Shown: piece after piece, positions 375 through 21,613 of the stretch
How positions within the stretch are numbered: position 1 is the stretch's first letter
Layout of the letters: each line of letters opens with the position of its first letter
DNA from: a bacterium
GTDB lineage: Bacteria > Krumholzibacteriota > Krumholzibacteriia > G020349025
Assembly: GCA_031362565.1 (NCBI GenBank)
Contig: JANLSU010000086.1
Coordinates: 1-23,913, forward strand
DNA length: 23,913 bases
Direction of reading: 5' to 3'
The notes under the pieces: generated by a model
Databases searched by the model: none
Told to the model about the DNA's origin: nothing
Seen by the model: the letters and a program-made list of their open reading frames with translations, nothing else
Made by a program: the position numbers and the translations under genes

Positions 375-404
375 CGTCAATCGGTTTGTCGTCAATCCGA
401 GACA
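375..404. promoter_or_regulatory. Candidate enhancer (UAS) for a Fis-family activator
   Basis: Direct repeat CGTCAATC at 375-382 and 390-397, plus palindrome TGTC-N10-GACA (387-404), about 200-230 bp upstream of the -24 element and separated from it by AT-rich DNA. It overlaps the activator stop codon. Confidence 0.35.
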
Positions 405-2065
405 GATTGCTCTTTTGATGACGTCTTTCGAGGACTGCGTCGCGGCTCCACGACGATGCCGTGGTTTTTCTTCAGAGTGTGGAGGTACTGGCGAGAAACT
501 CCCAGGCGCTGGGCGGCTGCGAGCACGTTCCCGTCGCATTCCTCCAGCGCATTTTGGATGGCCTGGCGTTCGACTTCCGCCAAGATTTCGCGGAGGGAGC
601 CTTTCCCGAGATCTCGGCGACCGCCTTCCGGGGGCTCTTCGGAGGTCAGGAACTCGCCGGTCAGCGTCGCGTCCGGGTCGGCGAGCGCCACCGCCTGATG
701 GATGCAGTTTTCGAGTTGGCGCACGTTGCCGGTCCAGTCTCGGGCGAGCAGCCAACGCAGGGCGCTGGGCGCCAGTTCAAGGTTTCCCTTGTCGTACTGC
801 GCCGCGAATCGCCGCGTGAACGCCTCGGCAAGGAGCAGCAGGTCATTGCCGCGTTCGCGTAACGGCGGGACACGAATATTCACCACCCGGAGGCGGAAAT
901 AGAGATCGTCGCGGAATTCTCCGAGTCGAATCTTCTCTTGAAGGTCCTTGTTCGTCGCGGCGATCACCCGTACATCGATCTTGCGATCCTGGGATTCGCC
1001 GAGACGCCGAATCTCGCGCTCCTGCAGCACGCGCAACAGTTGCGGTTGCAAGGTTAGCGGCAATTCGGCGATCTCGTCAATAAACAGCGTGCCGCCGTTC
1101 GCCGTTTCGAACAATCCAAGCCGGTCCTCGATCGCACCCGTGAACGCGCCCCTCTTGTGGCCGAACAGTTCGCTCCCGAACAACTCAGCGTGCAAGGAGC
1201 CCGCATTCACCGCGACGAACGGCCCGGTCCGCCGCGGGCTGTTCAAGTGCAGCGCCCGTGCGACGAGTTCCTTGCCTGTACCGGTTTCACCAAGCACGAG
1301 CACGCTGACAGCCGACCTCGCAGCTCGGTCGATAATTTCGAACAAACGCTCCATGGCCGGACTCGCCCCGACCATGGAATCGAAAACCGGTTTGCCGGCA
1401 ATTTGGCGCCGCAGACTCTCGTTCTCGGCTTCGAGCCGAGTCTTGTTGGCAAGCAGCTCGCTGTGGCGGCGGGCATTTTCGATGGCGAGTGCGGCTTGTG
1501 CTGCAAAGGACTCGAGCAGCACCCGGTCGCTCGCGTCCAGTGCGCGCCCCGGCTTGCGGCTATCGGTGTAACAAACGCCGAGCACGCGTCCACTCGCAAC
1601 AAGCGGCAGGCACGCATAGCTGCGCAATTGGAGCAGGTGGATGCTGTCGCGAATGCCAACCGAACCTTGCGTCAACACGTCTTCCACATACAACGCGTTC
1701 GCCGAATCGGCAACACTGCGGATCGTGCTGTGCGGAATCGCGAATGTTCCGCTGTCGACCTGTCCGGCCGCAGTCCCGTGGGACGCGCTCAATTCGAGTT
1801 CGCCTTGCGCATCGAACAGCAGCAGTGAGCCGCGTTCGGCTGCGGTGATTTCAACGAAGGCTTCGATGACGGTTTGCAAGAGCGGCTGCAGGTCGAGAAT
1901 CGAGGTGACTTCGCGCGCCAAGCGCATGACGTCGCGAAGTGCCGCGTTCAGGTCCTCGGCGGGCCGCGACGCCGCGGCGTGTTCGACGCTTGCCGCCGCG
2001 CCAGTCACGCGTCTCACATGGTCGCTGAGGATCTCCGCGGACCGGGTCGGCTTGCCGTCTGGCAT
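392..2065 (-). CDS. sigma54-dependent enhancer-binding protein (GAF + AAA+ + Fis-type HTH), 557 aa
   Basis: RBS GAGGAGG before ATG 2065. N-terminal GAF domain (ERGSLLL...YACLPL...GVCYTD...FAAQAALAIENAR). Walker A GETGTGKE, ELFGHKRGAFTGA, FIDEI, RVIAATN, FRDDLYFRL, WTGNVRQLEN. C-terminal HTH AAQRLGVSRQYL. Confidence 0.95.
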   Translation of the reverse strand: MPDGKPTRSAEILSDHVRRVTGAAASVEHAAASRPAEDLNAALRDVMRLAREVTSILDLQPLLQTVIEAFVEITAAERGSLLLFDAQGELELSASHGTAAGQVDSGTFAIPHSTIRSVADSANALYVEDVLTQGSVGIRDSIHLLQLRSYACLPLVASGRVLGVCYTDSRKPGRALDASDRVLLESFAAQAALAIENARRHSELLANKTRLEAENESLRRQIAGKPVFDSMVGASPAMERLFEIIDRAARSAVSVLVLGETGTGKELVARALHLNSPRRTGPFVAVNAGSLHAELFGSELFGHKRGAFTGAIEDRLGLFETANGGTLFIDEIAELPLTLQPQLLRVLQEREIRRLGESQDRKIDVRVIAATNKDLQEKIRLGEFRDDLYFRLRVVNIRVPPLRERGNDLLLLAEAFTRRFAAQYDKGNLELAPSALRWLLARDWTGNVRQLENCIHQAVALADPDATLTGEFLTSEEPPEGGRRDLGKGSLREILAEVERQAIQNALEECDGNVLAAAQRLGVSRQYLHTLKKNHGIVVEPRRSPRKTSSKEQSVSD

Positions 2066-2137
2066 CGGACCTCCTCGAAACGGCGGCTCGCGCCACCCAT
2101 TGGGGCAATGGTGGCAATCAAGCGCATGGACACCTTC

Positions 2138-2166
2138 AGTATAGCGCACCCGGCACGAACCGTCGC
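2138..2166 (-). promoter_or_regulatory. Possible sigma70-type promoter for the activator gene
   Basis: -10 TATACT (2143-2138) with a weak -35 GCGACG at 17-nt spacing. Confidence 0.3.
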
Positions 2167-2310
2167 GCCGATGGCCGATGCCGGATGGTTGCGTACCGTT
2201 CGGAACCCAGGCGGCAGCGCCAAGAGCCGAAACCCACCGCGCGGCGCCGCGCCGGACCACGCCCAGCGTGCGTCCAGGCACTGCGTTGCCGGCCCCCCGC
2301 CGGCGCCCCC

Positions 2311-2327
2311 CTGGCACGGATGTTGTT
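2311..2327 (+). promoter_or_regulatory. Candidate sigma54 promoter for the kinase operon
   Basis: CTGGCACGGATGTTGTT: consensus -24 TGGCACG with correct spacing, but -12 reads TTGT rather than TTGC. It lies about 80 bp upstream of ATG 2407. Confidence 0.5.
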
Positions 2328-2406
2328 GGTGTGTTTGAGGATCGCCAGGTGCGCGGCCTGCGCACCGCGAGCCGGAACGGCGCTTTCCCGCGGGCTTGGA
2401 GCCAGC

Positions 2407-5400
2407 ATGTTGTTCGACGCTACGAACCGTTACCGCCCGGAGCGCGAAATTGGCCGCGGCCGGCGCGCCGTGGTGACGGCAGCGGAAGACACCTGGCTCG
2501 GGCGGCGGGTAGCGCTCAAGCGCGCCCTCGACCCGCAGGATGATGCGCTCCTCATCGAGGAAGCCCAACGCTTGGCGCGCGTCGCCAACCCCTGTGTCGT
2601 CCAACTCCTCGACCTCGTTCCCGGGCCACCCGTGACCCTCGTCCTCGAGCTCCTGCAAGGCGAGACGCTGCGCGCCCGCGTCGTGCAAATCGGACGCCTG
2701 CCGCTCGAAACGGTGGACGGCTTGTTGTTGCGGATGTTCGACGCGTTCGAAGCGCTGGACAGTGCGGGGATCGTACATGGCGACGTGAAACCCGAGAACA
2801 TCTGGATGACGGCCGACGGTGGCCTGAAGCTGTTGGACGTCGGTGCCGCCGGCGATGCGACGGCCCTGTACGCGGCGCCCGAAATCGCCCTCGGCGGCAC
2901 CGCGACCTCGACCACCGATCTCTACGCGGCGGCGACGGTGGCCTGGGAGCTACTGGCCGGGCGGCTGCCGTTCGATGCAACCGATGCAACCGAACTCGCG
3001 CTCCGCAAGCGCACGCGTGCAGCGCCCAGTCTGGATCAGGCCGGCGCGCCCGTTCCGGCCGGCGTCGAGGCATGGTTCACGCGCGCCCTCGCCATCGATC
3101 CGGCGCAGCGATTCGGCAGCGCGCGCGACGCGCGCCAGGCGTGGCGCACGGCAATCGGCGTCCGATTCGCAGCGGTCTCGCCGGCCGTGCGTTCGAGCGT
3201 CGATCTCTATCCCGAGGCACGCCGCCGGGTGTTGGACGCCGACCAACTGACGCGTCCTGGTTCCGGCGGCACGATCGTCGTGCAGGCGCTGCCGGGAGCC
3301 GGCGCGAGCACGTTCCTGCTCGACGTGGCCCAAGCTTGCCAACGTGCCGGGTCGGACGTCGTGTTCCTGCGCCGCGCAGTCGCGCGGCGGCACGCGGCCT
3401 GGGGCGACTTTCGAGCTGCCGCCCGCCGGGCGCGCCGCATCGGTATTGCCCTTCCGGCGCCGCGGCCGCACGCCGCGGAAGAGATGCAGCAGGACCGCGT
3501 GGCGGCTGCACTTCGCAAGCGGGCTCGCACCCGGCATGTCGTCGTGTGTGCCGACGATCCCGCCACCTGCGACGGGCCAACGCGCCGGCTGTTCCTGCGC
3601 CTCGCGGCGGACGCGGCCCCGGGGGGCTGGACTTGCGTGGCGACCGTCCCCAGTGTCAGCGCGGGCCGCATCGCCGCACGGACTCGGGACGCGCTCACCG
3701 CAAGCGCCCAGACCGTGACAGGCCTGGAATCACCGGATCCGGCTGCCTGGCGCGCCTTCCTCGCCCTGCGTCTCAAAACCAGTGATGTCAGTGACGCGCT
3801 GGCGGCGCACGTGCGCGGCCGCACGCATGCAAACCCGAGCCTGGCGGTTGCGGTTCTACACGAGCTTTGTGAGAGCGACGCGCTGCGCCCGGCCGACGGT
3901 GGATGGATGTTCCGGCCCGAGCGCGCCGGCGACGGCCTGCCGGCAGCCGCAGTACGAATCCTCGGCCGGGTTCTTGCCGGACTGACGCCCGAGCGCCGCG
4001 GACTGTTGCGCGTCGCCGCGTTGCACGGTGGCAGTTTCGCAGCGTCGACGGTCGCGCCAGCCGCCGGCTGGCCGGCGGCGGATGTCGAGGCCGCGTTGCA
4101 CGAGATCGGGCTCGAGCGCCGGTGCCTCGAATCCGATGGCCCGCGATGGCGCTTCGCTCCACCGCTCCTCGCGACGCTCTTGGCGGCCGAGTTGCCGGCC
4201 GCGTCACGCCGCGAGTTGCACCACCGGTGCGCCGAGATCCTAAGCGGCGTGGGTGCCGACGATGATGCGATCGGCATGCATTGGTTCCTCGCCGGTGAGT
4301 TGGAACAGGCGCTCCCCGCCTTGCAGCGGGCCGGACACGCGGCATTGACCACTGGCAACGCGGAATTGGCGGCGCGCTGTTTCGGCTGGGCGTGCGAAGC
4401 GGCCGAGGCGCAGATCGAGGATGAAACCGGTGCGGCGCGACGCGTCGAGCTCGGACTGGCGCACGCCCAGGCGTTGCACGCCCTCGCGGCATGGGATGCA
4501 GCCGGCGTCCAGTTGGACACCAGTCTGACCTTGGCGCGGGCGTGGGGACTCGACGCGGCCGAAATACGCGGCTTGCGCGCCGGCGGTCAAATGGAATATG
4601 CGCGTAGCCGGTTCGACGAGGCCGTGGCGCGCTACGCCGCCGCACAGGAGTGTGCGTCGCGCCTCGGGGACGAGCACGAACTGCACGAACTCGCCCTCCA
4701 AATCGGCAATATCCATTTCGAACGCGGTGATCTAGACGCTGCCGCCGCCGAGTACCAGCGCACGCTGGACTACGCGACGGCACACGCCGATCTCGACCTG
4801 GAGGCACGCGCCGCCAACAACGTTGGGCTCGTGGAGAGCATCCAAGGGCGCAAGGAACAAGCCGTTCAATTCTTCAACCGCAGCCTGCAGGGATTCACCG
4901 CGCTCGGGCGCGGTGCGGCCGTGGCCCGCCTCTACCAGAATATCGGCATGATCTACCTCGAACTCGCCAACTGGGCCGAGGCGCGTAATTTCTTTCGCCG
5001 CTGCATGGAAGAGAGCGAGCGCCACGGTGAACCGGCGCTGCTCGCGGTGTCGTGCCTCGACTTTGCGGAAGCGACATTTCAACTCGGCGCCCATGCAGAA
5101 GCAGCACCGGCACTGACGCGCGCGCTGACGATTTGCCGTGAGCGCGGCGACGAGATAGGCGTGGCGAATGCAATGCGCTTGCAGGCGCAACTCGCCGCCC
5201 ATGCCGGCGACATGGCCGGTGCGGAACAACTTTTGATCGATGCCATCGGCAAGCTGGAGGTATTGGGCCAGGCGCTGCACCTTGGGCAGTGCTGGAAAGA
5301 TCTCGGCGCGCTGCGCCTGCGCGCCGGGCAGCGCGTCGCGGCCTTGCAGGCGCTCGACGAGGCCCAGCGGCGTTTCGGACCGCTCGACGCCGCCCAGCAC

Positions 5401-5460
5401 ACTGCAGAAGTCGAGGCATTACGCGCGCGCTGCCGAGAGGAGTCTGTGTGCCACCCGTGA
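2407..5460 (+). CDS. Hanks-type Ser/Thr protein kinase fused to a degenerate P-loop (STAND/AAA_16-like) domain and MalT-like TPR repeats, 1017 aa
   Basis: GGAG RBS before ATG 2407. Kinase motifs IGRGRRAVV, VALK, HGDVKPENI, DVG, YAAPE, DLYA, GRLPF. Central ALPGAGASTF, VVVCADD and RTHANP. C-terminal TPR-like helices (LQIGNIHFERG, ANNVGLV, YQNIGMIY). No transmembrane segment seen. Confidence 0.9.
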   Translation: MLFDATNRYRPEREIGRGRRAVVTAAEDTWLGRRVALKRALDPQDDALLIEEAQRLARVANPCVVQLLDLVPGPPVTLVLELLQGETLRARVVQIGRLPLETVDGLLLRMFDAFEALDSAGIVHGDVKPENIWMTADGGLKLLDVGAAGDATALYAAPEIALGGTATSTTDLYAAATVAWELLAGRLPFDATDATELALRKRTRAAPSLDQAGAPVPAGVEAWFTRALAIDPAQRFGSARDARQAWRTAIGVRFAAVSPAVRSSVDLYPEARRRVLDADQLTRPGSGGTIVVQALPGAGASTFLLDVAQACQRAGSDVVFLRRAVARRHAAWGDFRAAARRARRIGIALPAPRPHAAEEMQQDRVAAALRKRARTRHVVVCADDPATCDGPTRRLFLRLAADAAPGGWTCVATVPSVSAGRIAARTRDALTASAQTVTGLESPDPAAWRAFLALRLKTSDVSDALAAHVRGRTHANPSLAVAVLHELCESDALRPADGGWMFRPERAGDGLPAAAVRILGRVLAGLTPERRGLLRVAALHGGSFAASTVAPAAGWPAADVEAALHEIGLERRCLESDGPRWRFAPPLLATLLAAELPAASRRELHHRCAEILSGVGADDDAIGMHWFLAGELEQALPALQRAGHAALTTGNAELAARCFGWACEAAEAQIEDETGAARRVELGLAHAQALHALAAWDAAGVQLDTSLTLARAWGLDAAEIRGLRAGGQMEYARSRFDEAVARYAAAQECASRLGDEHELHELALQIGNIHFERGDLDAAAAEYQRTLDYATAHADLDLEARAANNVGLVESIQGRKEQAVQFFNRSLQGFTALGRGAAVARLYQNIGMIYLELANWAEARNFFRRCMEESERHGEPALLAVSCLDFAEATFQLGAHAEAAPALTRALTICRERGDEIGVANAMRLQAQLAAHAGDMAGAEQLLIDAIGKLEVLGQALHLGQCWKDLGALRLRAGQRVAALQALDEAQRRFGPLDAAQHTAEVEALRARCREESVCHP

Positions 5461-6320
5461 ACGACACGTCCCTATCGCCGGGAAACGGCGAAGTCGAAGC
5501 GTTGCAGCGCGAAAACGAGGCGCTGCTGCGCGAGCTGGAGAATACCTACGCGCAGCTCGCAGCCGTGCTGCAGGTTTCGCAGGACGAGACCCGGATTGCG
5601 TACGCCGAACTGGAAGAAAAACTGGTCATTCAGGAGAAAAAGCTGGTCGAACTGGCGTTCTTGGGCGGCGCGGTTGAAGCGTTGCTCGAGGAACGCGACC
5701 TCGACCATCTGCGCCGCCTGGTGCTCGACAAGATCTGCCTGCTGGTGCCGGTCGACCTCGCGGTTCTGGTGTTGCTGCCCGGTTCGGACTCGAGCCTGCA
5801 ACGTGAACGCGATGTGGTGCGCGCCGTGACCAACGACCGCGCCCGCCAAGAGGCCTTCGAGTCCGTCGAGCGGCGGGTCGAGCAAGGCGGCCGGGCTGTG
5901 TGGCTCGTGCCCGACCTCGAGGCGGATGCGAGCGCCGCTCCCTTGCGGTTGCGGCCGGACGCGAACTCAGCGGCTTGTCTGGCGCTCAGGGCCGGCGGGC
6001 ACCTGCTGGGGCTGCTCGTGCTGAATGGCCGGCTGCGAGCCAGTTTTCGCGACGATCAGGAGCCGTTGTTCGGCACCTTCGCACACCATGCGGCGGCGGC
6101 GCTGGCGAACGGCCTCGAAATCCGGCGCCATCGCTTGGTGATCGCCGAACTTTTGCAGCGCCACAGCTTGCCGGCGAGTGATCTGCAAGTCGCGGCGCGC
6201 GCCGCCCTGGCGCCCGTCGGCAACCGCGCGCTGGACACCGTCAACCGCGTCCTTGGGACGCTGGACTCCACCTGGGAACCACCGTCGGTGGCCATTCCCG
6301 CTCCCCGGGAGAAGGCATGA
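5448..6320 (+). CDS. Coiled-coil + GAF-domain protein without a recognisable output domain, about 290 aa
   Basis: GAGGAG RBS then GTG 5448 (alternative GTG 5457 overlaps the kinase stop). Heptad-rich N-terminus. GAF signature WLVPDL...SAACLAL...LLGLLVLN...FRDDQEPLFGTFAHHAAAALAN. Confidence 0.8.
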   Translation: MPPVNDTSLSPGNGEVEALQRENEALLRELENTYAQLAAVLQVSQDETRIAYAELEEKLVIQEKKLVELAFLGGAVEALLEERDLDHLRRLVLDKICLLVPVDLAVLVLLPGSDSSLQRERDVVRAVTNDRARQEAFESVERRVEQGGRAVWLVPDLEADASAAPLRLRPDANSAACLALRAGGHLLGLLVLNGRLRASFRDDQEPLFGTFAHHAAAALANGLEIRRHRLVIAELLQRHSLPASDLQVAARAALAPVGNRALDTVNRVLGTLDSTWEPPSVAIPAPREKA

Positions 6321-6604
6321 GCTGCTCGCGTTGCCGTTTCGAGGCGGTTCTCGAGACCGACAAGTTCTGTATCCGCTGTGGTTCGCGATTGCTGGCCATG
6401 GACGATCAGGCCGACGCCCTGTTGATGACCCAACGCGTCATGCACGCCGCCGAAGTCCATTACCGGCTCGGCAATGTCTACTTCCGCAAGGGTGACATCG
6501 ACCAAGCCATCTCGTCGTGGAAGCAGGCGTTGAGCATCGATCCGGGATTCGAAGCCGCGCGCCAGATGATCGACAAGGTGCGCGGCATCAAGCCGCTTTC
6601 GTGA
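6317..6604 (+). CDS. Zn-ribbon + single TPR protein, 95 aa
   Basis: ATGA overlap with the upstream gene. CSRC...FCIRCG zinc ribbon. TPR AEVHYRLGNVYFRKGDIDQAISSWKQALSIDPGF. Confidence 0.85.
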   Translation: MSCSRCRFEAVLETDKFCIRCGSRLLAMDDQADALLMTQRVMHAAEVHYRLGNVYFRKGDIDQAISSWKQALSIDPGFEAARQMIDKVRGIKPLS

Positions 6605-6614
6605 GGAGGAAACC

Positions 6615-6998
6615 ATGCTCGCACTCTGCCCCGCATGCGCCCACGAGAACCGTAACGGTGCCTTCTTTTGCGCTCAATGCGGCAGCAAATTGCATTTCGC
6701 GGCGGGGCCTTGCGGCCGCCTCGTGCGGATGAACGGTCCGCAACAGGATCGCCGCATCGAACTCGCGGGTCCGGTGTGTGTGATCGGGCGCGACCCGAGT
6801 ACCAGCGTCCGCCTCGAGGAAGAGTCGATTTCGAAACAACACGCGCGGCTGACGCAGAACGGCGACTCGTTCCAAATCGAAGATCTCGAGAGCTCCAACG
6901 GCACGTTCGTGAACGGCCGGCGGATTCGCGACCGGGTCGAAATCAAACCCGGCGATCTGTTGCGGGTCGGATCGGTGATCTTGAAGCTCGAGGTCTAG
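6615..6998 (+). CDS. Zn-ribbon + FHA (phosphothreonine-binding) protein, 127 aa
   Basis: RBS GAGGAGG. CPAC...FCAQCG zinc ribbon. FHA motifs IGRD, ISKQHA, DLESSNGTFVNG, GDLLRVG. Confidence 0.92.
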   Translation: MLALCPACAHENRNGAFFCAQCGSKLHFAAGPCGRLVRMNGPQQDRRIELAGPVCVIGRDPSTSVRLEEESISKQHARLTQNGDSFQIEDLESSNGTFVNGRRIRDRVEIKPGDLLRVGSVILKLEV

Positions 6999-13681: not shown

Positions 13682-16600
13682 TCAGCGCACCAAAATCATC
13701 TTCCGTTGCATCGACGCATCCCCCGTCGTCAGCCGGTAGAAGTACACACCGCTCGCCACCGAACGCCCCGCCTCGTTGTGCCCGTCCCAAGTGGCATCGT
13801 AGTGCCCCGGCAAGAGCCGGCGCGCAACCAACGTTCGCACCCGGGCGCCGCGCACATCGAACACTTGTAATGCAACGAACTGCGCCGCCGTTCCACCGAC
13901 ATCGAAGCGGATGAGCGTCGTGGGATTGAACGGATTCGGAATGTTGGGCTGCAACCCGGTGCGGAACGCCGGCGCCGTGCCGCCGTCACCGACATCGGTC
14001 GGAAGACGGTAGTCCGTCAGGCCATTGCGCAGCAAGTTGCCCTTCAACGTTCCCCACGGGACGCGATGGCGAACGTACAGTCCTGGGAAGTGCCACGCGT
14101 AGACTTGCTGATCCCAGCCGGAGACAATCAGATCGACACGGCCATCGCCATCGGCATCGGTGAGCAACGGCGTCGCACGCACTTCGGCTCCGAGACGCAC
14201 CGGGAAGCCGGGGAAGATGGTGCCGTTCGGATTGAAGGCGTTGAGGATGCCCGACTCGCCACCATAGACGATCTCCATCACGCCGTCGCCGTTCAGGTCC
14301 CCGACCACCGGCGACGACTCCGACGCGCTGTGCACATCCACCGGCCAACCGGGACGGACGTTGCCGTTGGAGTCGAACATGTACAGGCTGCCGGTGCTCA
14401 CATCGCTGCCGGTGCTCGCCGCAACGAGTTCCAGCTTGCCATCGCCGTCGAAATCCGCGAGCGCCACCGACGGGGTGAGCGCCGCCCAGAGATTCGGCAG
14501 CGGCCGCGGCCAACCCGGAGCGTCGGTGCCATCGGGACGGAAGACATAGAGCTGCCCGTTGACGCAGGGCACCACGATCTCGAACGTGCCGTCGTGATCG
14601 ATGTCGCCGATGCTCGGCGAGGCGTCGACCTTGTCGCTCAAGGTCCGCGGCCAACCCGGTGCGACGGTGCCATTGGCCCGCAGCACATAGACTTTGCCGT
14701 TCTCGGTTCCGAAAATGATCTCCGGCGTGGGGTCGGACGGCAAAACGTTGGCGACCGCCGGACCGCCGCGGCTCCAAGTCGGCAAACCGGGGATCGCATA
14801 GAAAACGCCGTTCGTCGCCGGATCCGCATCCCCGTCTCGCACCTCGGTGCCATCCGCGTGCCAGGCGTAAACGCGCCCATCGAGCGCCAGCAGGACGATT
14901 TCGAGACGGCCATCGAGATCCAGGTCGGCAAGAGCGGGCGTCGCCCAAATGCTGTGCGTGGTCGACACGATCGAGTGCGGCCAGCCGGGCCGGACGGTGC
15001 CGTCGGGACCGAAGACATAAACGGTTTTCGTATCGAACGTGCACGCCACGACCTCGTCGCGGCCGTCGCCGTCCAGGTCGCCGACCGCAAGGCCCGGCAT
15101 GAAGTTGGCGGTCGTCGGTGTGTACACACCCTGGGTGGCGGCGTTGCTGTCGCCGTCCCGCACTTCGGTGCCGTTCACATGCCAAGCGTAGAAATGGTCC
15201 GCGGCGCCGGCGACCACTTCCACGTGTCCGTCGCCATCCAGATCGGCGACGGCCGGACTACAGTTGCTCTGCAGTCCCAGAGTTTGCGGCCAGCCGGCGA
15301 GCGCGCCGGGATTCGTCGTCACGCCAAGCGACATCGTGCGGAGGCTCTCGTTGCCGGCCGAGTCGACCGCCGCAACCGAATAGAAATACTGCGTCCCGGG
15401 TTGCAAACCCTCGTCGCGGAAGTAGGTGGAGTTGCGCACCAGGTCGGTGCTCGCCCGCAACCACGGACCATAGTTGTGCGGAGCGCGATATACGACATAG
15501 CCCGCGACGTCGGACGAGACGCTCTTGCCCCAGGTCAGGGTCGTGACTCCGGATCCGTCGCTCGGATCGCCCACCAGTCCCGTCAACGGCTGCGGCCGCC
15601 GTGTTTCGACCGGCAAGCTCCAGGTTCGTGCCTGGGCATCGAGAACCACGAGCAACATGCGGTTGTTCTGCGTGACGTTACTCTCGCGGATACGGAAGGC
15701 CCCAGTGCCGACACCAAGGTGACCGATGCTGCCGAAGGTCGTAGACCCGTTGACGATGGTGACATCCGGGTCGAGTGACAGCAGTTGGCCGGTCGCACCC
15801 GCCAGTTGCGCGAACCCGTAGTTCTTCAACTCGACGCGCAGATCGTACGTTTCATTGGCCTGGGCGACGGCGTCCCCATTGCCGGTTACCGAATCGTCGA
15901 CCCAAATGCGTTGCACCCGTGGGGAAACCTGCAACAGATCGAGGCTGACCCGGTCATTCCACTGGGTCGATTGCACCGTCTTCAGAACGAGATCGATGCC
16001 GACCCGTTGCTGGTCGAAGGCCCCGGCCGCGACATTCACCACGACGGGTCCGGACCAGATGCGCTGGCCCGCCGCCATGGTGCCGACGTTGGCGATGCTG
16101 GTCGAGAGCAGGAGCGCGGGCTCGGTGCAGAACGCTTGCAACGTGACGCCTTCCGCCGGCAATGTCCCGGCGTTCTCGATTTCAAAGCGCACCTGCGCGG
16201 CCTCACCGGCTTCCAGCACGGCGTTGCCGTTGCCCGCCGTACCAACGCCCGAATCGACGACCTGAATCGCGCCGGTCGAATGCAGCACCGCGCCGCCGTA
16301 GGGCGTCACCGTCACCTCGGCGCGGTACGGCCGCACGCCGGCGCCGGTCACCGCAAGGTGCGCGGTACCGGCCACTTCGGCGGTCAGATTGAGCGCCGCG
16401 ACACCGGTCAGTCCGGTGCGCCCGACGACGTAGAAGTCACCCGGTTTCCACAAGCAGACGGTGGCGCCTTGCACCGGGTTCCCGGCCTCGGTGACGGTCA
16501 CCGTGAACGTCCGAACGCCCTGAAAGATGTTCGGCGCGTGCGTCACGGCAATCGTGCGCGGCGTGTTCGTCCACAGCGTCAGTTCCGGGTCGCCCAGGTA

Positions 16601-18307
16601 CGCGGTGATGAAGTACGACCACCGAAACGCGTTGTCATCGAAAGTCTGTGCGACGTATTTGAGGCGCGCCTGATGCAGGCACTCCGCCGCACCCGGGTAC
16701 CCTTGGCTGTACAGGGCGTTGAACCAGGCTTCCTGAAACACTTGGATGTTGTCCGGATACGCCTCGCGCGCCGAACCGATGACGCCGATCGCCCCACCGG
16801 TCGGACACAGCAGGAATTTCTCCGCCAAACAGGGGAAATCGAAAGCCGCCGCCGAGCAATTCAGCATGTGCAGGAAAAACGGCCGGGTCGCGTTCTGGAG
16901 TCCGAGAGCGTCGGCGATGCTCGCCGATGCGTCGCCGAGCGACATGGAGTACCGGAACCCGTGTCCAATGTGGGTGACGATCGACTGGCCGGCATTCATG
17001 GCCGCCAGTCCCACGGCACGCGTCAATTTGATCGCACCCGGGTAGAACTGGGGGGTTTCATCGAGGCGGCTCAACACCCGGCCGGCGGTGTCGAGGTGGT
17101 TCAGAATGATCAGACGTTCGGCGTTGTCGGCGCCGTTCTTGAGGATCGGATCGCCCGCCTTGTAGCTCGCCGGCCAAATGACCTCGGCCAAGAATCCCAT
17201 CTTGTTCTGGTAATCGAGCACCGTGGGTTCGCAATAGGCTTGCAACTTGGCGAGGAGCATCTGCACTTGGGTGGAATTGACGACCGGCAGGCGCCCGACC
17301 CACAGTTCCGGCAACAGGTCGGCATTGTCGGTGGTGTTGTCGACATAGACGAACCCTTCGCCCCAGCGAGCGTCGCGGTCGCCGTTCCAATTGCCATCGA
17401 GACAACCGTAGTACAGGTCGGTCGGAACGCTCTCGCCTTCCAGCGAGTACACCGACGACGCATAGCGCGCCGGGACGAGGTCGGTGTCGCCACCGATGAG
17501 TACCGAGCGGATCCCCCAGAGCTGGTAGGCCTGGCGGAAGAAGTCGCGCAACGTCTCGGCGACGTCGGCGCCATGCGGATAGTTCTGCAGCACCCACTCG
17601 ACGCTTCGAACCACGGTCGGCACGCCGGTTCCGGTCTTGTAGTCGGCGTAGGCCTGGAACGACGGCACCAACGCGTCGCGGGTCAGAATCAGCATTTGCA
17701 CCGCGCTGCCCTCGAGGCTTGGAGCCTCCGTGGGCTTGAAGCCGGCGGCGGCCGGCGGTGTCGCGGTAAGGAGCGGCGCGGAATAATTCGCCAATTCGTC
17801 GGGATTGACGACGCAGTCGGTCAACTCGCGGCGGACGTCCAGTTCGCGCAGGGCATCGGCGCGCCGCGGATGGACGACGGCCGTCACCGCGCCGGTCTCC
17901 AGTTCGAGCGTCGCACCCTCCGACGCGTGCGCCACAAGATCCGCGCGCCGCACCGCGACCGCCGCAATGCCGTAGCCGTGGTAGAAGCTGGTACCGAGCA
18001 CCGTCGCCGGCCACGGCGCGTGGACCGCGTGGAGTTCTTGTTCGGGTGCGAGCAGAATGCAGAGCACAACGCGCTCACTCGGAGCGCCGGCCTGTGGTGC
18101 CACCTTGTCAGCGACCCCGGGCGCTGTCGCACGCGCGGCGGCCGCGGCACTTTGCAGGCGCGCCGCAGTGACGCGCACGCGCAGGGTCGCCGCGAGCGCC
18201 GTGGACGGCGCCACACCCATGCTCATCAAGACGGCAACGAGGAAAAAACGTGCAATCGGCATTGCACGGGCCGTGGTAGGAACGGCGCGCGACGCAACCG
18301 CAGGCAT
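13682..18307 (-). CDS. Secreted C25 (gingipain-family) cysteine peptidase with Ig-like, FN3, FG-GAP repeats and a FlgD-Ig/T9SS-like C-terminal domain, about 1541 aa
   Basis: AAGGAG RBS before ATG 18307 (alternative 18262) and a signal peptide. VLIGGD..LVP, PTDLYY, VGRLP, catalytic-type HIGHG and LNCS, YLGDPEL. FN3 motif LQPGTQYFYSVAAVDSAGNES. Multiple DLDGDG..E repeats. C-terminal PNPFNP...WDG...SGVYFYRL...RKMILVR. Confidence 0.92.
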   Translation of the reverse strand: MPAVASRAVPTTARAMPIARFFLVAVLMSMGVAPSTALAATLRVRVTAARLQSAAAAARATAPGVADKVAPQAGAPSERVVLCILLAPEQELHAVHAPWPATVLGTSFYHGYGIAAVAVRRADLVAHASEGATLELETGAVTAVVHPRRADALRELDVRRELTDCVVNPDELANYSAPLLTATPPAAAGFKPTEAPSLEGSAVQMLILTRDALVPSFQAYADYKTGTGVPTVVRSVEWVLQNYPHGADVAETLRDFFRQAYQLWGIRSVLIGGDTDLVPARYASSVYSLEGESVPTDLYYGCLDGNWNGDRDARWGEGFVYVDNTTDNADLLPELWVGRLPVVNSTQVQMLLAKLQAYCEPTVLDYQNKMGFLAEVIWPASYKAGDPILKNGADNAERLIILNHLDTAGRVLSRLDETPQFYPGAIKLTRAVGLAAMNAGQSIVTHIGHGFRYSMSLGDASASIADALGLQNATRPFFLHMLNCSAAAFDFPCLAEKFLLCPTGGAIGVIGSAREAYPDNIQVFQEAWFNALYSQGYPGAAECLHQARLKYVAQTFDDNAFRWSYFITAYLGDPELTLWTNTPRTIAVTHAPNIFQGVRTFTVTVTEAGNPVQGATVCLWKPGDFYVVGRTGLTGVAALNLTAEVAGTAHLAVTGAGVRPYRAEVTVTPYGGAVLHSTGAIQVVDSGVGTAGNGNAVLEAGEAAQVRFEIENAGTLPAEGVTLQAFCTEPALLLSTSIANVGTMAAGQRIWSGPVVVNVAAGAFDQQRVGIDLVLKTVQSTQWNDRVSLDLLQVSPRVQRIWVDDSVTGNGDAVAQANETYDLRVELKNYGFAQLAGATGQLLSLDPDVTIVNGSTTFGSIGHLGVGTGAFRIRESNVTQNNRMLLVVLDAQARTWSLPVETRRPQPLTGLVGDPSDGSGVTTLTWGKSVSSDVAGYVVYRAPHNYGPWLRASTDLVRNSTYFRDEGLQPGTQYFYSVAAVDSAGNESLRTMSLGVTTNPGALAGWPQTLGLQSNCSPAVADLDGDGHVEVVAGAADHFYAWHVNGTEVRDGDSNAATQGVYTPTTANFMPGLAVGDLDGDGRDEVVACTFDTKTVYVFGPDGTVRPGWPHSIVSTTHSIWATPALADLDLDGRLEIVLLALDGRVYAWHADGTEVRDGDADPATNGVFYAIPGLPTWSRGGPAVANVLPSDPTPEIIFGTENGKVYVLRANGTVAPGWPRTLSDKVDASPSIGDIDHDGTFEIVVPCVNGQLYVFRPDGTDAPGWPRPLPNLWAALTPSVALADFDGDGKLELVAASTGSDVSTGSLYMFDSNGNVRPGWPVDVHSASESSPVVGDLNGDGVMEIVYGGESGILNAFNPNGTIFPGFPVRLGAEVRATPLLTDADGDGRVDLIVSGWDQQVYAWHFPGLYVRHRVPWGTLKGNLLRNGLTDYRLPTDVGDGGTAPAFRTGLQPNIPNPFNPTTLIRFDVGGTAAQFVALQVFDVRGARVRTLVARRLLPGHYDATWDGHNEAGRSVASGVYFYRLTTGDASMQRKMILVR

Positions 18308-18595: not shown

Positions 18596-18913
18596 TCAGA
18601 CCGCGGCCGCGCGCCGCGTCGCCTCGAACCCATGCTGGCGCAGCAGCGCGTCGAGTGCTTCGCACGCGGTTGCAGCGGACCGCACCCGGTATTCGACCGC
18701 CTGCTCGCGTCCGAGCCGGACGAGGAACAGGGCGCCAAAAACGGAGATCTCGCACACCACACCCAACGCGTCGCGGAACCGCAAGCCGAAAGCCCCGACC
18801 TCCGGTTCGAGCCCTGGGGTGATCGCGAGGACACGGCGCACGAACCGTGCAAGCAGCGGCGCACACTCCAGATCCTGGATTTCATCCAAGTACAGGGCGA
18901 CCGCTTCAGACAT
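18596..18913 (-). CDS. Hypothetical protein, 105 aa (MSEAVALYLDEIQD...)
   Basis: GGAGGT RBS, ATG 18913 overlaps the upstream stop, globular alpha/beta-like composition. The longer ORF-track version overlaps the upstream gene. Confidence 0.7.
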   Translation of the reverse strand: MSEAVALYLDEIQDLECAPLLARFVRRVLAITPGLEPEVGAFGLRFRDALGVVCEISVFGALFLVRLGREQAVEYRVRSAATACEALDALLRQHGFEATRRAAAV

Positions 18914-19844
18914 GCGCCGCACCTCCGCGTCCAAGCCCGGCGAGTAGCGCTTGGGCAAGACTTTCGAAAACGCGCGCCGCGGGGTGATCCGGTTCGATCG
19001 CCGCGAGAGCGAGTTGCGGATGCAACGCATACGCCGGAACACGCGCCCAGGCGGGACGTGGGGTGGCGGAGGACGGCCCCCATTCGAGCCCGTGCACCGG
19101 CACCGAGTCGAGCCCCCCGGACAGCGCCGCGGCCGGCTGTGCATCACCCTTGAAGACTCGAATCGCGACATCCACGGCCGGCACTTGCGGCGCCAGCTCA
19201 GGCGTTGTGGCGACTCGCGCCGCGGGCCGGAGCCGGTCGCCGCGGCGGGCCGTTTTCATCCAGGCCTCGAACATCGGACTTTGCGTTGCGGCGCGCTCCA
19301 TGGTCGTCACCGCCGGCGGCAGCGCGAGTGCCGGCGCGAGCCGCTGCAACTCGGATTGCGCCTCCTGCATCGGCAGGCGCACCAAAACCGCGTCGGCGGC
19401 GCGCACGACCGCGTCCAGTTCGGCAAGCGCCCATGCGGTGCCATTCACGACGCCGATCCCCAAGACGCCGCGTTCGACACGCAGGCCCGGTGCGTCGCCA
19501 AGACCGTTCAAGTATGCGAGCGGGTGCAGGCCGAGCCGAAAACCAGGATTCGGCAATGCCGGGTCCGCGTCGAGCACGATCGTCTTTCGACCCAGACGCG
19601 TCATCTGAATCGCCAGATTCGCGCAGACCTCGGAATCGACGAGCGCGTCACCGCTCGCCAACACCGCAATGCGCAGACAACGCCGCGCCGCGGCGGTCGG
19701 CGGTGCCGGTGCCGGCCGGTTCGACAGGTACAGATGAGAGATATCGCGCAGGCGCCGCGTGCCACTGCGCGGCGACCGCGGCTCGGGCTGTCCGTCATAC
19801 GCCACTTCGCCCCGCCCCGCCCCCTCGATCACTGCGCGCCCCAC
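18906..19844 (-). CDS. Degenerate MinD/FlhG/ParA-like protein lacking Walker A
   Basis: LRIAVLASGDALVDSEVCANLAIQMTRLGRKTIVLDADPALPN aligns with the MinD/FlhG N-terminus but has no KGGxGK. C-terminal PDHPAARVFESLAQALL. Start uncertain (GTG 19844 or 19805). Confidence 0.7.
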   Translation of the reverse strand: MGRAVIEGAGRGEVAYDGQPEPRSPRSGTRRLRDISHLYLSNRPAPAPPTAAARRCLRIAVLASGDALVDSEVCANLAIQMTRLGRKTIVLDADPALPNPGFRLGLHPLAYLNGLGDAPGLRVERGVLGIGVVNGTAWALAELDAVVRAADAVLVRLPMQEAQSELQRLAPALALPPAVTTMERAATQSPMFEAWMKTARRGDRLRPAARVATTPELAPQVPAVDVAIRVFKGDAQPAAALSGGLDSVPVHGLEWGPSSATPRPAWARVPAYALHPQLALAAIEPDHPAARVFESLAQALLAGLGRGGAAHV

Positions 19845-19853
19845 GCACTCTTG

Positions 19854-20924
19854 TCAGATGACGACGACGGAATTCTCCTGGCCGTATTCGTTCGTGATGC
19901 TCTCGGGGTTGTTCGGGTCCTTGACCCAGACGCCATCGAGGATGAAGCGATACTCGTGTACACCAGGCCCGATATCGAGGACGCCGCTCCAGGTGCCGGC
20001 GTCGTCGCGCTCGAGCGGCGTGCCCTCGTACGACCAGCCGGTGAATTCGCCGGTGATCCGCACATCCTGCGCCTGACGCGCGTCAATGCTGAAGCGCACC
20101 CCACCGGCAACGGCGCGCGGGCCCTCGAATACCGCATCCTGATTCCGATTCCCTGCCACCTGAAAGAAGGGCTCCTGGGCCAAAAGTTCCTCGGCCAGTG
20201 CCAGGAATTCCTTGGCGGCGCGGTTGTGCGAGTCGAACCGGACGATCGGTTGGCCGCGACTCGCGGCCTCCTTCAGCTTCACGGTGTGGCTGATGCAGGT
20301 CTTCAGCATCGAGTCGCCGTGGAAGTTCTCGATCTCGTACAGGATGTCGCGCGAGAAATTCGTCCGGCTGTTGTAGTTGTTCGCCAACACCCGAATGACC
20401 ACATCGTGGCCGATTTCGTCGCGCAAGAGCTCGATCGTTTCGCGGACCTTGTGCAACCCGTGCAACGAGAAGAAACTCGGGTCGACCGGAATGACAGTCT
20501 CGCCCGACGCTGCAAGGGCGTTGAACGTCAGGAGCCCGATGCTCGGCGGACAATCGATCACCACGTAGTCATAGGCTTTTCGCAGTCGCGATAGTTTCGC
20601 GGCCAGGCGCTGCTCACGCCCCGGTTTGTCGGCCAGCTCCTGTTCGACACCCGCCAGCACGACCGTCGACGGCGCGAGATCCAGGTTCTCGAGAACCGGA
20701 ATGACGATGTCGTCAATTTCGACGCCGGGCTGCATCAGCACGTCGTGCATGCTGCGATCGAAGTCATCGGAATCGATGTTCAACCCGAGACCCGCATGAC
20801 CCTGCGGATCCAAATCGATCAGTAGAACCAGTTTGCCTTTCTTGGCGAGCGCCGCAGCCAAATTGATGGATACGGTCGTCTTGCCGCAGCCACCCTTCTG
20901 GTTCACCACCGAGAGAATACGCAT
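19854..20924 (-). CDS. ParA/Soj-family ATPase fused to a C-terminal CBM48/AMPK-beta-type glycogen-binding domain, 356 aa
   Basis: AAGGAG RBS before ATG 20924. NQKGGCGKTT, IDLDPQG, IDCPPS, VKLKEAASRG. C-terminal VRITGEFTGW...GTWS...GVHEYRFILDGVW..DPNNP...YGQENSVV. Confidence 0.92.
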   Translation of the reverse strand: MRILSVVNQKGGCGKTTVSINLAAALAKKGKLVLLIDLDPQGHAGLGLNIDSDDFDRSMHDVLMQPGVEIDDIVIPVLENLDLAPSTVVLAGVEQELADKPGREQRLAAKLSRLRKAYDYVVIDCPPSIGLLTFNALAASGETVIPVDPSFFSLHGLHKVRETIELLRDEIGHDVVIRVLANNYNSRTNFSRDILYEIENFHGDSMLKTCISHTVKLKEAASRGQPIVRFDSHNRAAKEFLALAEELLAQEPFFQVAGNRNQDAVFEGPRAVAGGVRFSIDARQAQDVRITGEFTGWSYEGTPLERDDAGTWSGVLDIGPGVHEYRFILDGVWVKDPNNPESITNEYGQENSVVVI

Positions 20925-21184: not shown

Positions 21185-21613
21185 TCAGAGCAGCGCGAAG
21201 AGGGCTCCAACCACGACACCAAGCGCGAGCCCGCCACCGACTTCGGTCCAGGTGTGGCCGACGAGTTCCTTGAGACGCTGCTGGCTGACCGCATTGTGGG
21301 TCCGCAATTCGTCGAGCAGCGCATTCAAGACCCGGGCTTGGCGGCCGACGTCCTGCCGCAGACCGCCCGCTTCGGCAATGAAATACACGCTGAACATCAA
21401 GCAAATGCTGAAGAGGTCGCTGCGAATCCCGGACTCGAAGCCAACGGTTGTGGTGAGCCCCACCACGACCGCCGTATGGGAGCTTGGCATGCCGCCGGTG
21501 TCGAAGAAACGCGTCCACGCAAAGCGCGATTCCCGGATGCTCGTGGCCACGACTTTGATGAGCTGAGCGAGCGATCCCGCGACGACCGCTGCCCACCCGG
21601 CCGGATGAATCAC
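21185..21613 (-). CDS. Divergent PAP2 family membrane protein (DUF212/YuiD-like)
   Basis: AQLIK, TGGMPSSH, EAGGLRQDVGRQARVLN, LKELVGHT..EV.GG. GGAGG RBS with GTG start. Confidence 0.92.
   Translation of the reverse strand: MIHPAGWAAVVAGSLAQLIKVVATSIRESRFAWTRFFDTGGMPSSHTAVVVGLTTTVGFESGIRSDLFSICLMFSVYFIAEAGGLRQDVGRQARVLNALLDELRTHNAVSQQRLKELVGHTWTEVGGGLALGVVVGALFALL

Follow-up and report, generated by a model that had tools for sequence, protein, structure and literature searches.

The combination of a ParA ATPase with a carbohydrate-binding module (CBM) has been catalogued by Li, Burroughs and Aravind as the "CBM-containing system" (clade ConB5) and was predicted to be an immune sensor (bioRxiv 10.64898/2026.10.19.760177). 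According to the passage of that preprint on this system, ParA-CBM is accompanied either by a TM-CBM protein (first variant) or by an inactive ParA and a REase (second variant). In chromosomal ParABS (Soj/Spo0J; PDB 8RAY), ParB residues L11, R13, L15, L18 and I19 dock in a pocket of M. xanthus ParA (PMC12462528). In McdAB and other ParA/MinD cargo systems (PMC10241942, PMC11407121), an orphan ATPase is paired with a partner that carries a basic N-terminal peptide and binds the cargo. The words glycogen, granule, carbohydrate and storage were not returned by a term search of the main text of one ParA/MinD review (PMC11407121), in which a storage polymer is not named as cargo; for ParA-CBM proteins, granule positioning and phage sensing are competing predictions.

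In the window, the whole stretch of 23,913 nucleotides analysed here, we identified an operon that begins with a ParA-CBM48 fusion gene (Table 1). Judged from sequence, its system is a variant of the one already catalogued, a widespread ParA with a dedicated partner that lies outside ParABS. Like the CBM-containing system, it has a ParA with a C-terminal AMPK1_CBM, and the inactive second ParA of the second variant is also present, while the first variant, with its TM protein and second CBM, matches 15 of the best 80 cross-phylum loci. The second variant has an optional inactive REase gene, whereas the third gene of the window is predicted to be YdhG/frataxin-like, and the preprint's passage on the system makes no mention of the ParB-like helix that we describe for the partner. 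The first-pass annotation knew of no experimental description of such a system; this holds in the literature searched, a search that missed the preprint and so shows it weakly, and the architecture itself does appear in the 2026 preprint, as immune.

Compared with ParABS, the fusion is alike in fold, catalytic motifs and the R238-equivalent residue, and in both systems the activator pocket is for the most part hydrophobic and the activator, putative here, follows an R-x-L-x-x-hydrophobic pattern. The window system differs in the extra CBM, in a helix that is one turn longer, and in having no ParB domain or parS nearby. The orphan ATPase and the putatively activating basic N-terminal peptide of its partner recall the McdAB-type systems; unlike in those, the putative cargo binder is located on the ATPase rather than on the partner.

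The operon is probably a housekeeping ParA/partner module, and its sequence features make it likely that it acts like a ParA cargo-positioning system. With less assurance, and at somewhat under even chances, we take the main cargo to be an alpha-glucan granule, glucan tethering being the best single reading. A slightly more tentative proposal is that this may be the first active positioning system for a bacterial polysaccharide store, with an inverted logic in which the ATPase would grip glycogen and a portable ParB-like helix on a pseudo-ATPase would mark release, found in many mostly uncultured phyla and misread as immune.

Table 1. Features of the operon and its surroundings in the window, and carriers of the fusion classed as glucan-negative
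Feature	Position	Strand	Basis or remark
ParA-CBM48 fusion gene, 356 aa (P0001)	19854..20924	-	ORF, Pfam, AlphaFold model
Soj/ParA ATPase domain, residues 1-250	20175..20924	-	Walker A and B intact; R187, K216, K218 basic; hydrophobic at 5/6 ParB-pocket positions
Short linker, 0-357 aa in relatives	20121..20174	-	AlphaFold model, comparison with relatives
AMPK-beta-type CBM48, residues 269-356 (W297, R326, W333, Y347, N351)	19857..20120	-	Pfam, alignment
Partner gene, 299 aa, degenerate MinD/FlhG-like domain without Walker A	18906..19805	-	Profiles of relatives, Atlas
ParB-like N-terminal helix of partner (R-x-L-x-x-I-S-H-L-Y-L-S), predicted ParA-activating peptide	19719..19769	-	Peptide matrix, synteny
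Third gene, 105 aa, start overlaps partner stop, predicted YdhG/YjbR/frataxin-like fold	18596..18913	-	Fold comparison
DUF212 gene, fixed upstream neighbour across the phylum	21185..21613	-	Pfam, synteny; context marker
Glucan-negative carriers: G022, G028, G035, G060, G078, G111, G115, G129, G139, G167, G180, G191			G191 partly assembled

The ATPase domain and its genomic setting

The fusion ORF runs on the minus strand from an ATG at 20924 to a stop at 19854, and an AAGGAG ribosome site is located upstream of the start. Its residues 1-173 match the Pfam family AAA_31 (E 1e-52, above the cut-off). The first-pass annotation had claimed an intact deviant Walker A and basic residues near the Soj DNA-binding positions (SRTN, VKLKEA), and both claims were borne out. 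The Walker A motif (NQKGGCGKT), the D37/D39/Q41 set and the Walker B residue D124 are all preserved, and when the query was aligned with 132 fused relatives (133 sequences), N8, K10, K15, D37, D39, Q41 and D124 proved invariant. R187 of the SRTN stretch is R in 101 of these 133. At K216 of VKLK, which corresponds to the DNA-binding residue R238 in M. xanthus ParA, 100 of them have R or K. The sequence and fold features of the ParA/Soj (PriB1) branch are present: the Walker A is of the deviant type, beginning with Asn and containing the signature Lys, and it is joined by DxDxQ, the Walker B Asp and the ParA fold. In the AlphaFold model of the fusion, two confident domains (pLDDT 94) are connected by a loose linker at 260-265, and the modelled ATPase domain superposes on M. 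xanthus ParA 8RAY with a TM of 0.94. By analogy with ParABS, the fusion would dimerise in an ATP-dependent manner and bind DNA non-specifically.

A domain-architecture search, as suggested in the first pass, found AAA_31 and AMPK1_CBM together in 136 of the 150 best homologue clusters (50% identity), and these two-domain relatives rule out an assembly artefact as the source of the fusion. Among 12 matches without the CBM, Pfam detected no domain in its place; several of them appear by eye to be frameshifted or cut. Four relatives are unusual (P0124, P0220, P0191, P0045), comprising repeat proteins with 18 and 7 tandem CBM48-like repeats, one protein with HTH_17 inside the fusion linker, and one likely chimeric record.

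The absence of parB and parS from the window, also asserted in the first pass, agrees with a profile search for parB and with a scan for a parS consensus, allowing at most three mismatches. The canonical parAB pair of this genome is located on a separate contig (C43) and is 37% identical to the fusion's ATPase. The fusion was rejected as the main chromosomal ParA of this genome because this separate parAB exists, and the fusion lacks the marks of chromosomal ParABS, an adjacent parB with CTPase and HTH, and parS. The location of parAB on another contig and the dedicated helix-bearing partner downstream support the earlier suggestion of an orphan ParA-type positioning ATPase.

A third, more diverged orphan ParA-like gene is present within a SpoIIE/STAS anti-sigma operon (L015:9517-10257). 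Elsewhere in the window, a sigma-54 GAF activator and a signalling cluster made up of Ser/Thr kinase-TPR, GAF, TPR and FHA proteins are divergently arranged (392-6998). Immediately after the operon comes a large peptidase C25 protein (13682-18262), which has FG-GAP repeats, fn3 and a tail of FlgD-Ig/T9SS-like type.

A partner with a ParB-like helix

Directly downstream of the fusion lies a partner gene that the first-pass annotation had overlooked. Its start was placed at a GTG by comparison with relatives, and in-frame GTGs also occur at 19832 and 19844. The window's own copy has no Pfam match; its relatives match ParA/CbiA profiles, and Atlas places the window copy among MinD/ParA-like proteins at 0.95. 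Among 86 partner sequences, a set that includes six duplicate loci, just 8 show GK[ST] as a loose pattern, and three of the eight have it at the extreme N-terminus. The partner is an inactive, fast-diverging second ParA (14-47% identity among relatives), whose N-terminal helix is its best-conserved part.

A peptide matrix for this helix was trained on 34 peptides, all from the 80 cross-phylum loci. When all six frames of the complete genome were scanned with this matrix, the window's peptide was the top match (26.7 vs 21.4 for the runner-up), and the true ParB peptide of this genome scored -8.4, so the partner helix is only partly ParB-like. Many copies of the helix read LGRGL, the same as in this genome's ParB. 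Of the 73 CBM-bearing loci, which span many phyla, 37 have the helix immediately downstream, as do 4 of the 7 loci without a CBM; the helix is therefore likely aimed at the ATPase. It rides on varied bodies, including pseudo-MinD, HTH, HTH+TM+RodZ_C, ExeA-like AAA and a nuclease-like fold. The last of these is presumably nuclease-like, having been assigned by eye with no Pfam match, and the label is also used by the preprint.

On the ATPase side, the M. xanthus pocket residues L150, L152, L155, L187 and L192 correspond to I129, L131, F134, L166 and I171 of the fusion, and the site for the ParB arginine is only partly kept (H60, D61, V89, E96). Motif, synteny and pocket residues agree with a basic N-terminal peptide of the activating type. 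By analogy with ParABS, the partner helix would dock in the dimer-edge pocket and stimulate hydrolysis.

The best fold match of the third gene is the YdhG-like 9t2w (Z 9.7, rmsd 3.8 over 101 residues); the gene matched nothing in Pfam or Atlas, and Foldseek gave no match at E 0.001 or better. Its identity as a REase was rejected on account of the YdhG-like fold and an HHalign probability of 0.3% against the nuclease-like partners of other phyla. A different upstream gene, of Omnitrophota type (L082:1948-2517 and 14 similar loci), encodes a protein whose N-terminal helix resembles the partner motif and which also has a basic stretch, a single TM segment and another CBM-like domain; GH57 often adjoins the gene. 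The helix of this TM protein scored below the matrix threshold and was left out of the helix counts.

According to the mechanism that we propose, the ATP-bound ParA dimer is predicted to bridge the nucleoid and alpha-glucan stores, and the ParB-like helix of the partner would trigger release from this bridge. The cargo adaptor would reside on the ATPase itself and the activator helix would be carried by interchangeable bodies, so that the activator would mark the site of glucan release.

The CBM48 module and its probable link to glycogen

The C-terminal module matches AMPK1_CBM at residues 284-355 (E 3.7e-11, 43.5 bits vs a cut-off of 26.8) and CBM_48 at residues 274-332 (E 5e-7), and its nearest solved structure is AMPK-beta (E 4.5e-9). 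Residues W297, R326, W333 and Y347 align with W100, K126, W133 and L146 of AMPK-beta, which are needed for glycogen binding (PMC2642990). This sugar site is kept across the 133 aligned sequences (W297 in 133, W333 in 129, R/K326 in 129, F/Y/L347 in 105). The fused AMPK-beta-like CBM with conserved aromatics noted in the first pass is thus confirmed, with a match above the Pfam cut-off and both Trp and the basic residue present. The fusion differs from AMPK-beta in that the module sits on a P-loop ATPase and the T148 equivalent is not kept (Q349); binding of alpha-1,4/1,6-glucan is putative here, by analogy with AMPK-beta.

Four further AMPK-type CBM proteins are encoded in G000 (L014:9402-12172, L016:8282-9784 and L017:9155-11557, on contigs C123, C97 and C75): a 759-aa protein, a small probable lipoprotein, a CBM with an Omp85-like barrel, and an 800-aa protein. 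Three of the four have signal-peptide-like starts by eye, and a G029 relative of the 800-aa protein weakly matches a glycoside hydrolase profile.

A homologue 71% identical to the fusion bears the name Ca. Krumholzibacteria, so the window probably comes from that phylum. Its genome (100% complete) has glgA, three GH57, a phosphorylase, two GH13 matches and two glgC-like genes just below the cut-off; MalQ and GlgE were not found. Among the 201 genomes of the phylum, 118 have both the fusion and glgA, 28 the fusion only, 28 glgA only, and 27 neither. When alternative pathways besides glgA are also counted as glucan-positive, the fusion is carried by 86 of 104 glucan-positive and 7 of 21 glucan-negative genomes among 125 good ones, related genomes not being independent and kinship inflating any test on these counts; 18 good genomes have glgA without the fusion. 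Among cross-phylum genomes, 68 of the 73 that bear the CBM have GT5 synthase, GlgP or GlgE (GT5 in 38, GlgP or GlgE in 30 more, none in 5), a count with no control group and with completeness unknown. A GH57 gene is present in 11 of the best 80 cross-phylum loci.

No glycogen gene adjoins the fusion in this window or in most of the phylum, and in at least two lineages the fusion does lie beside glycogen genes. In G029, it no longer sits at the usual site; a partner is not recognisable there, and the fusion stands at the head of a CBM48-GT4-GT4-GH57-GlgP-GH57-MalQ-GH13 cluster. In genus g13, 2 of 17 genomes are carriers, both with the GT4/GH57/GlgP glycogen cluster; a third genome (68% complete) has glucan genes but no fusion. 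This type of cluster, with GT4 in place of GlgA, is patchy in families f5 and f8 (L165:6000-17993 in G029, L166:2373-11555 in G011); two GT4 genes are found in G029 and at least one was called in G011, and the other genes of the cluster are those for phosphorylase, MalQ, a GH57 branching enzyme and a stand-alone CBM48. In two related genomes without glgA, the phosphorylase match contains a single in-frame TGA (G001:C12:91778-93430, G004:C24:38745-39509).

In twelve carriers from f5 and f8, searches for GlgA/GT5, GT3, GlgE, phosphorylase and the GH57 branching enzyme were all negative (Table 1). Seven of them, at 90-96% completeness, also lack GH13, and one is a single contig with two fusion copies; a pathway to alpha-glucan was not detected in 7 of the 93 carriers that are at least 90% complete. 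No glgC-level match was found in the four glucan-negative carriers checked, nor MalQ in the two checked, and G111 and G180 have marginal GH57 matches only (E 7e-5 and 9e-4). GT3 was found in 0 of 45 genomes and GlgE in 1 of 18 f5/f8 carriers, 6 of which are accounted for by the GT4/GH57/GlgP cluster. The CBMs of the glucan-negative carriers keep W, R, W, F and N, with Q and L in one G078 paralogue, and their dN/dS is 0.06-0.21 or their synonymous sites are saturated (three of six pairs). Because the sugar sites are intact and synonymous sites are saturated, selection has outlasted the apparent loss of glycogen synthesis. Since the glucan-negative carriers form one clade and are metagenome bins, an undetected glucan pathway is possible.

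Glycogen is thus a likely ligand of the fusion's CBM, as far as sequence can tell, and not an obligate one, because seven good carriers show no glycogen pathway yet keep the sugar site. As for glycogen being the cargo, which the first-pass annotation had put forward, the intact sugar site, the enrichment in glucan-makers and the glycogen-gene neighbours of some lineages speak for it. Against it stand the 12 phylum carriers without detectable synthesis (7 at least 90% complete) in which the module is intact, in part the very finding that the annotation had named as counting against its proposal.

These carriers bear on an alternative in which the same housekeeping ParA/partner module positions or anchors another essential ligand of the CBM, be it some other glucan, a protein or lipid that carries sugars, or a polymer that escaped detection. 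We regard this as unlikely, at perhaps a one-in-four level of belief. It draws on the module being intact and under purifying selection in 11 genomes (12 genes) without detectable glycogen genes, on AMPK-type CBMs that sit on other proteins too, several of them signal-peptide-like by eye, and remain in genomes without glycogen genes such as G078 and G028, and on the ParA-partner pair existing also without any CBM. However, the exceptions are a single clade (f5 and f8), all metagenome bins, and six members of that clade hold the alternative GT4/GH57/GlgP cluster, so recent losses, or a pathway yet to be recognised, may account for them; the lineages with the fusion beside glycogen genes also argue against this alternative. 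The glycogen-less carriers are a natural experiment on the ligand of the module, and if the ligand were something other than glycogen, either a hitherto unrecognised glycan of the cytoplasm or a novel role for CBM48 would be indicated.

The glucan could also be a signal or landmark rather than cargo, with the CBM holding the ATPase on polar glycogen or sensing maltodextrins and so tuning the ParA switch on DNA or the cell cycle, a possibility that we consider improbable. AMPK-beta employs the module as a glycogen sensor (PMC2642990), and E. coli glycogen collects at the old pole, where it displaces the nucleoid and skews both it and division (PMC12706056). HTH or nuclease-like folds frequently carry the activator helix, and a sensor of small glucans could survive the loss of glycogen synthesis. 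However, no output protein was found, and the seven good exceptions are also without GH13 and phosphorylase, and therefore have no obvious cytoplasmic maltodextrin route. Tethering of an alpha-glucan granule is kept here as the preferred, tentative reading.

Inheritance, selection and the immune prediction

The fusion is present in 146 of the 201 genomes of the phylum (E below 1e-60; a few partial at contig ends) and absent from 55. DUF212 is directly upstream in 63 of 74 phylum loci, which were picked by score and so as to represent all nine families. In the fusion tree, 6 of 8 families are monophyletic, with f5 placed inside f8 and f7 inside f3. Within the phylum, identity is 54.6% for the CBM, 50.5% for the ATPase and 54.6% for DUF212, with tree lengths of 17.4, 16.3 and 19.9, respectively. 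The dN/dS of the CBM is 0.025-0.37 in 11 of 15 pairs, and synonymous sites are saturated in the rest. The best 80 cross-phylum loci, 73 of which have the CBM, come from Planctomycetota, Omnitrophota, Myxococcota, Desulfobacterota, Eisenbacteria, Zixibacteria, Acidobacteriota and others, and across phyla identity is 35% for the CBM vs 41% for the ATPase.

These data bear on the anti-phage prediction of the preprint (bioRxiv 10.64898/2026.10.19.760177), in which the lectin would detect an infection-linked carbohydrate or glucan depletion and ParA would multimerise to limit infection; for this operon we judge it improbable, the least probable of the readings weighed here. The preprint invokes sporadic spread and rapid CBM divergence. 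The somewhat greater divergence of the CBM than of the ATPase across phyla and the fast divergence of the partner are in line with it, and independence from glycogen synthesis and the 55 genomes without the fusion would also fit. Within this phylum, however, which the figures or supplements of the preprint may list, neither hallmark was found: the CBM evolves no faster than the ATPase, its dN/dS is below 0.4 in all measurable pairs, and the locus is fixed and largely vertically inherited. In addition, 3 of the 144 nearest neighbours (of 705 called genes, with no control set) match PADLOC, each through a generic domain (HTH, ABC-ATPase or regulator), and active effector domains were not found. 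A search of 50,697 phages and 72,556 plasmids for the whole fusion gave no match at 80% cover or more. The housekeeping ParA/partner module is favoured over this prediction.

Two fusion copies in G078 are located off the usual locus (L167:5186-8201; L168:7937-9034), with no glucan enzymes, and one of them is followed by the partner, the third gene and a stand-alone CBM48.
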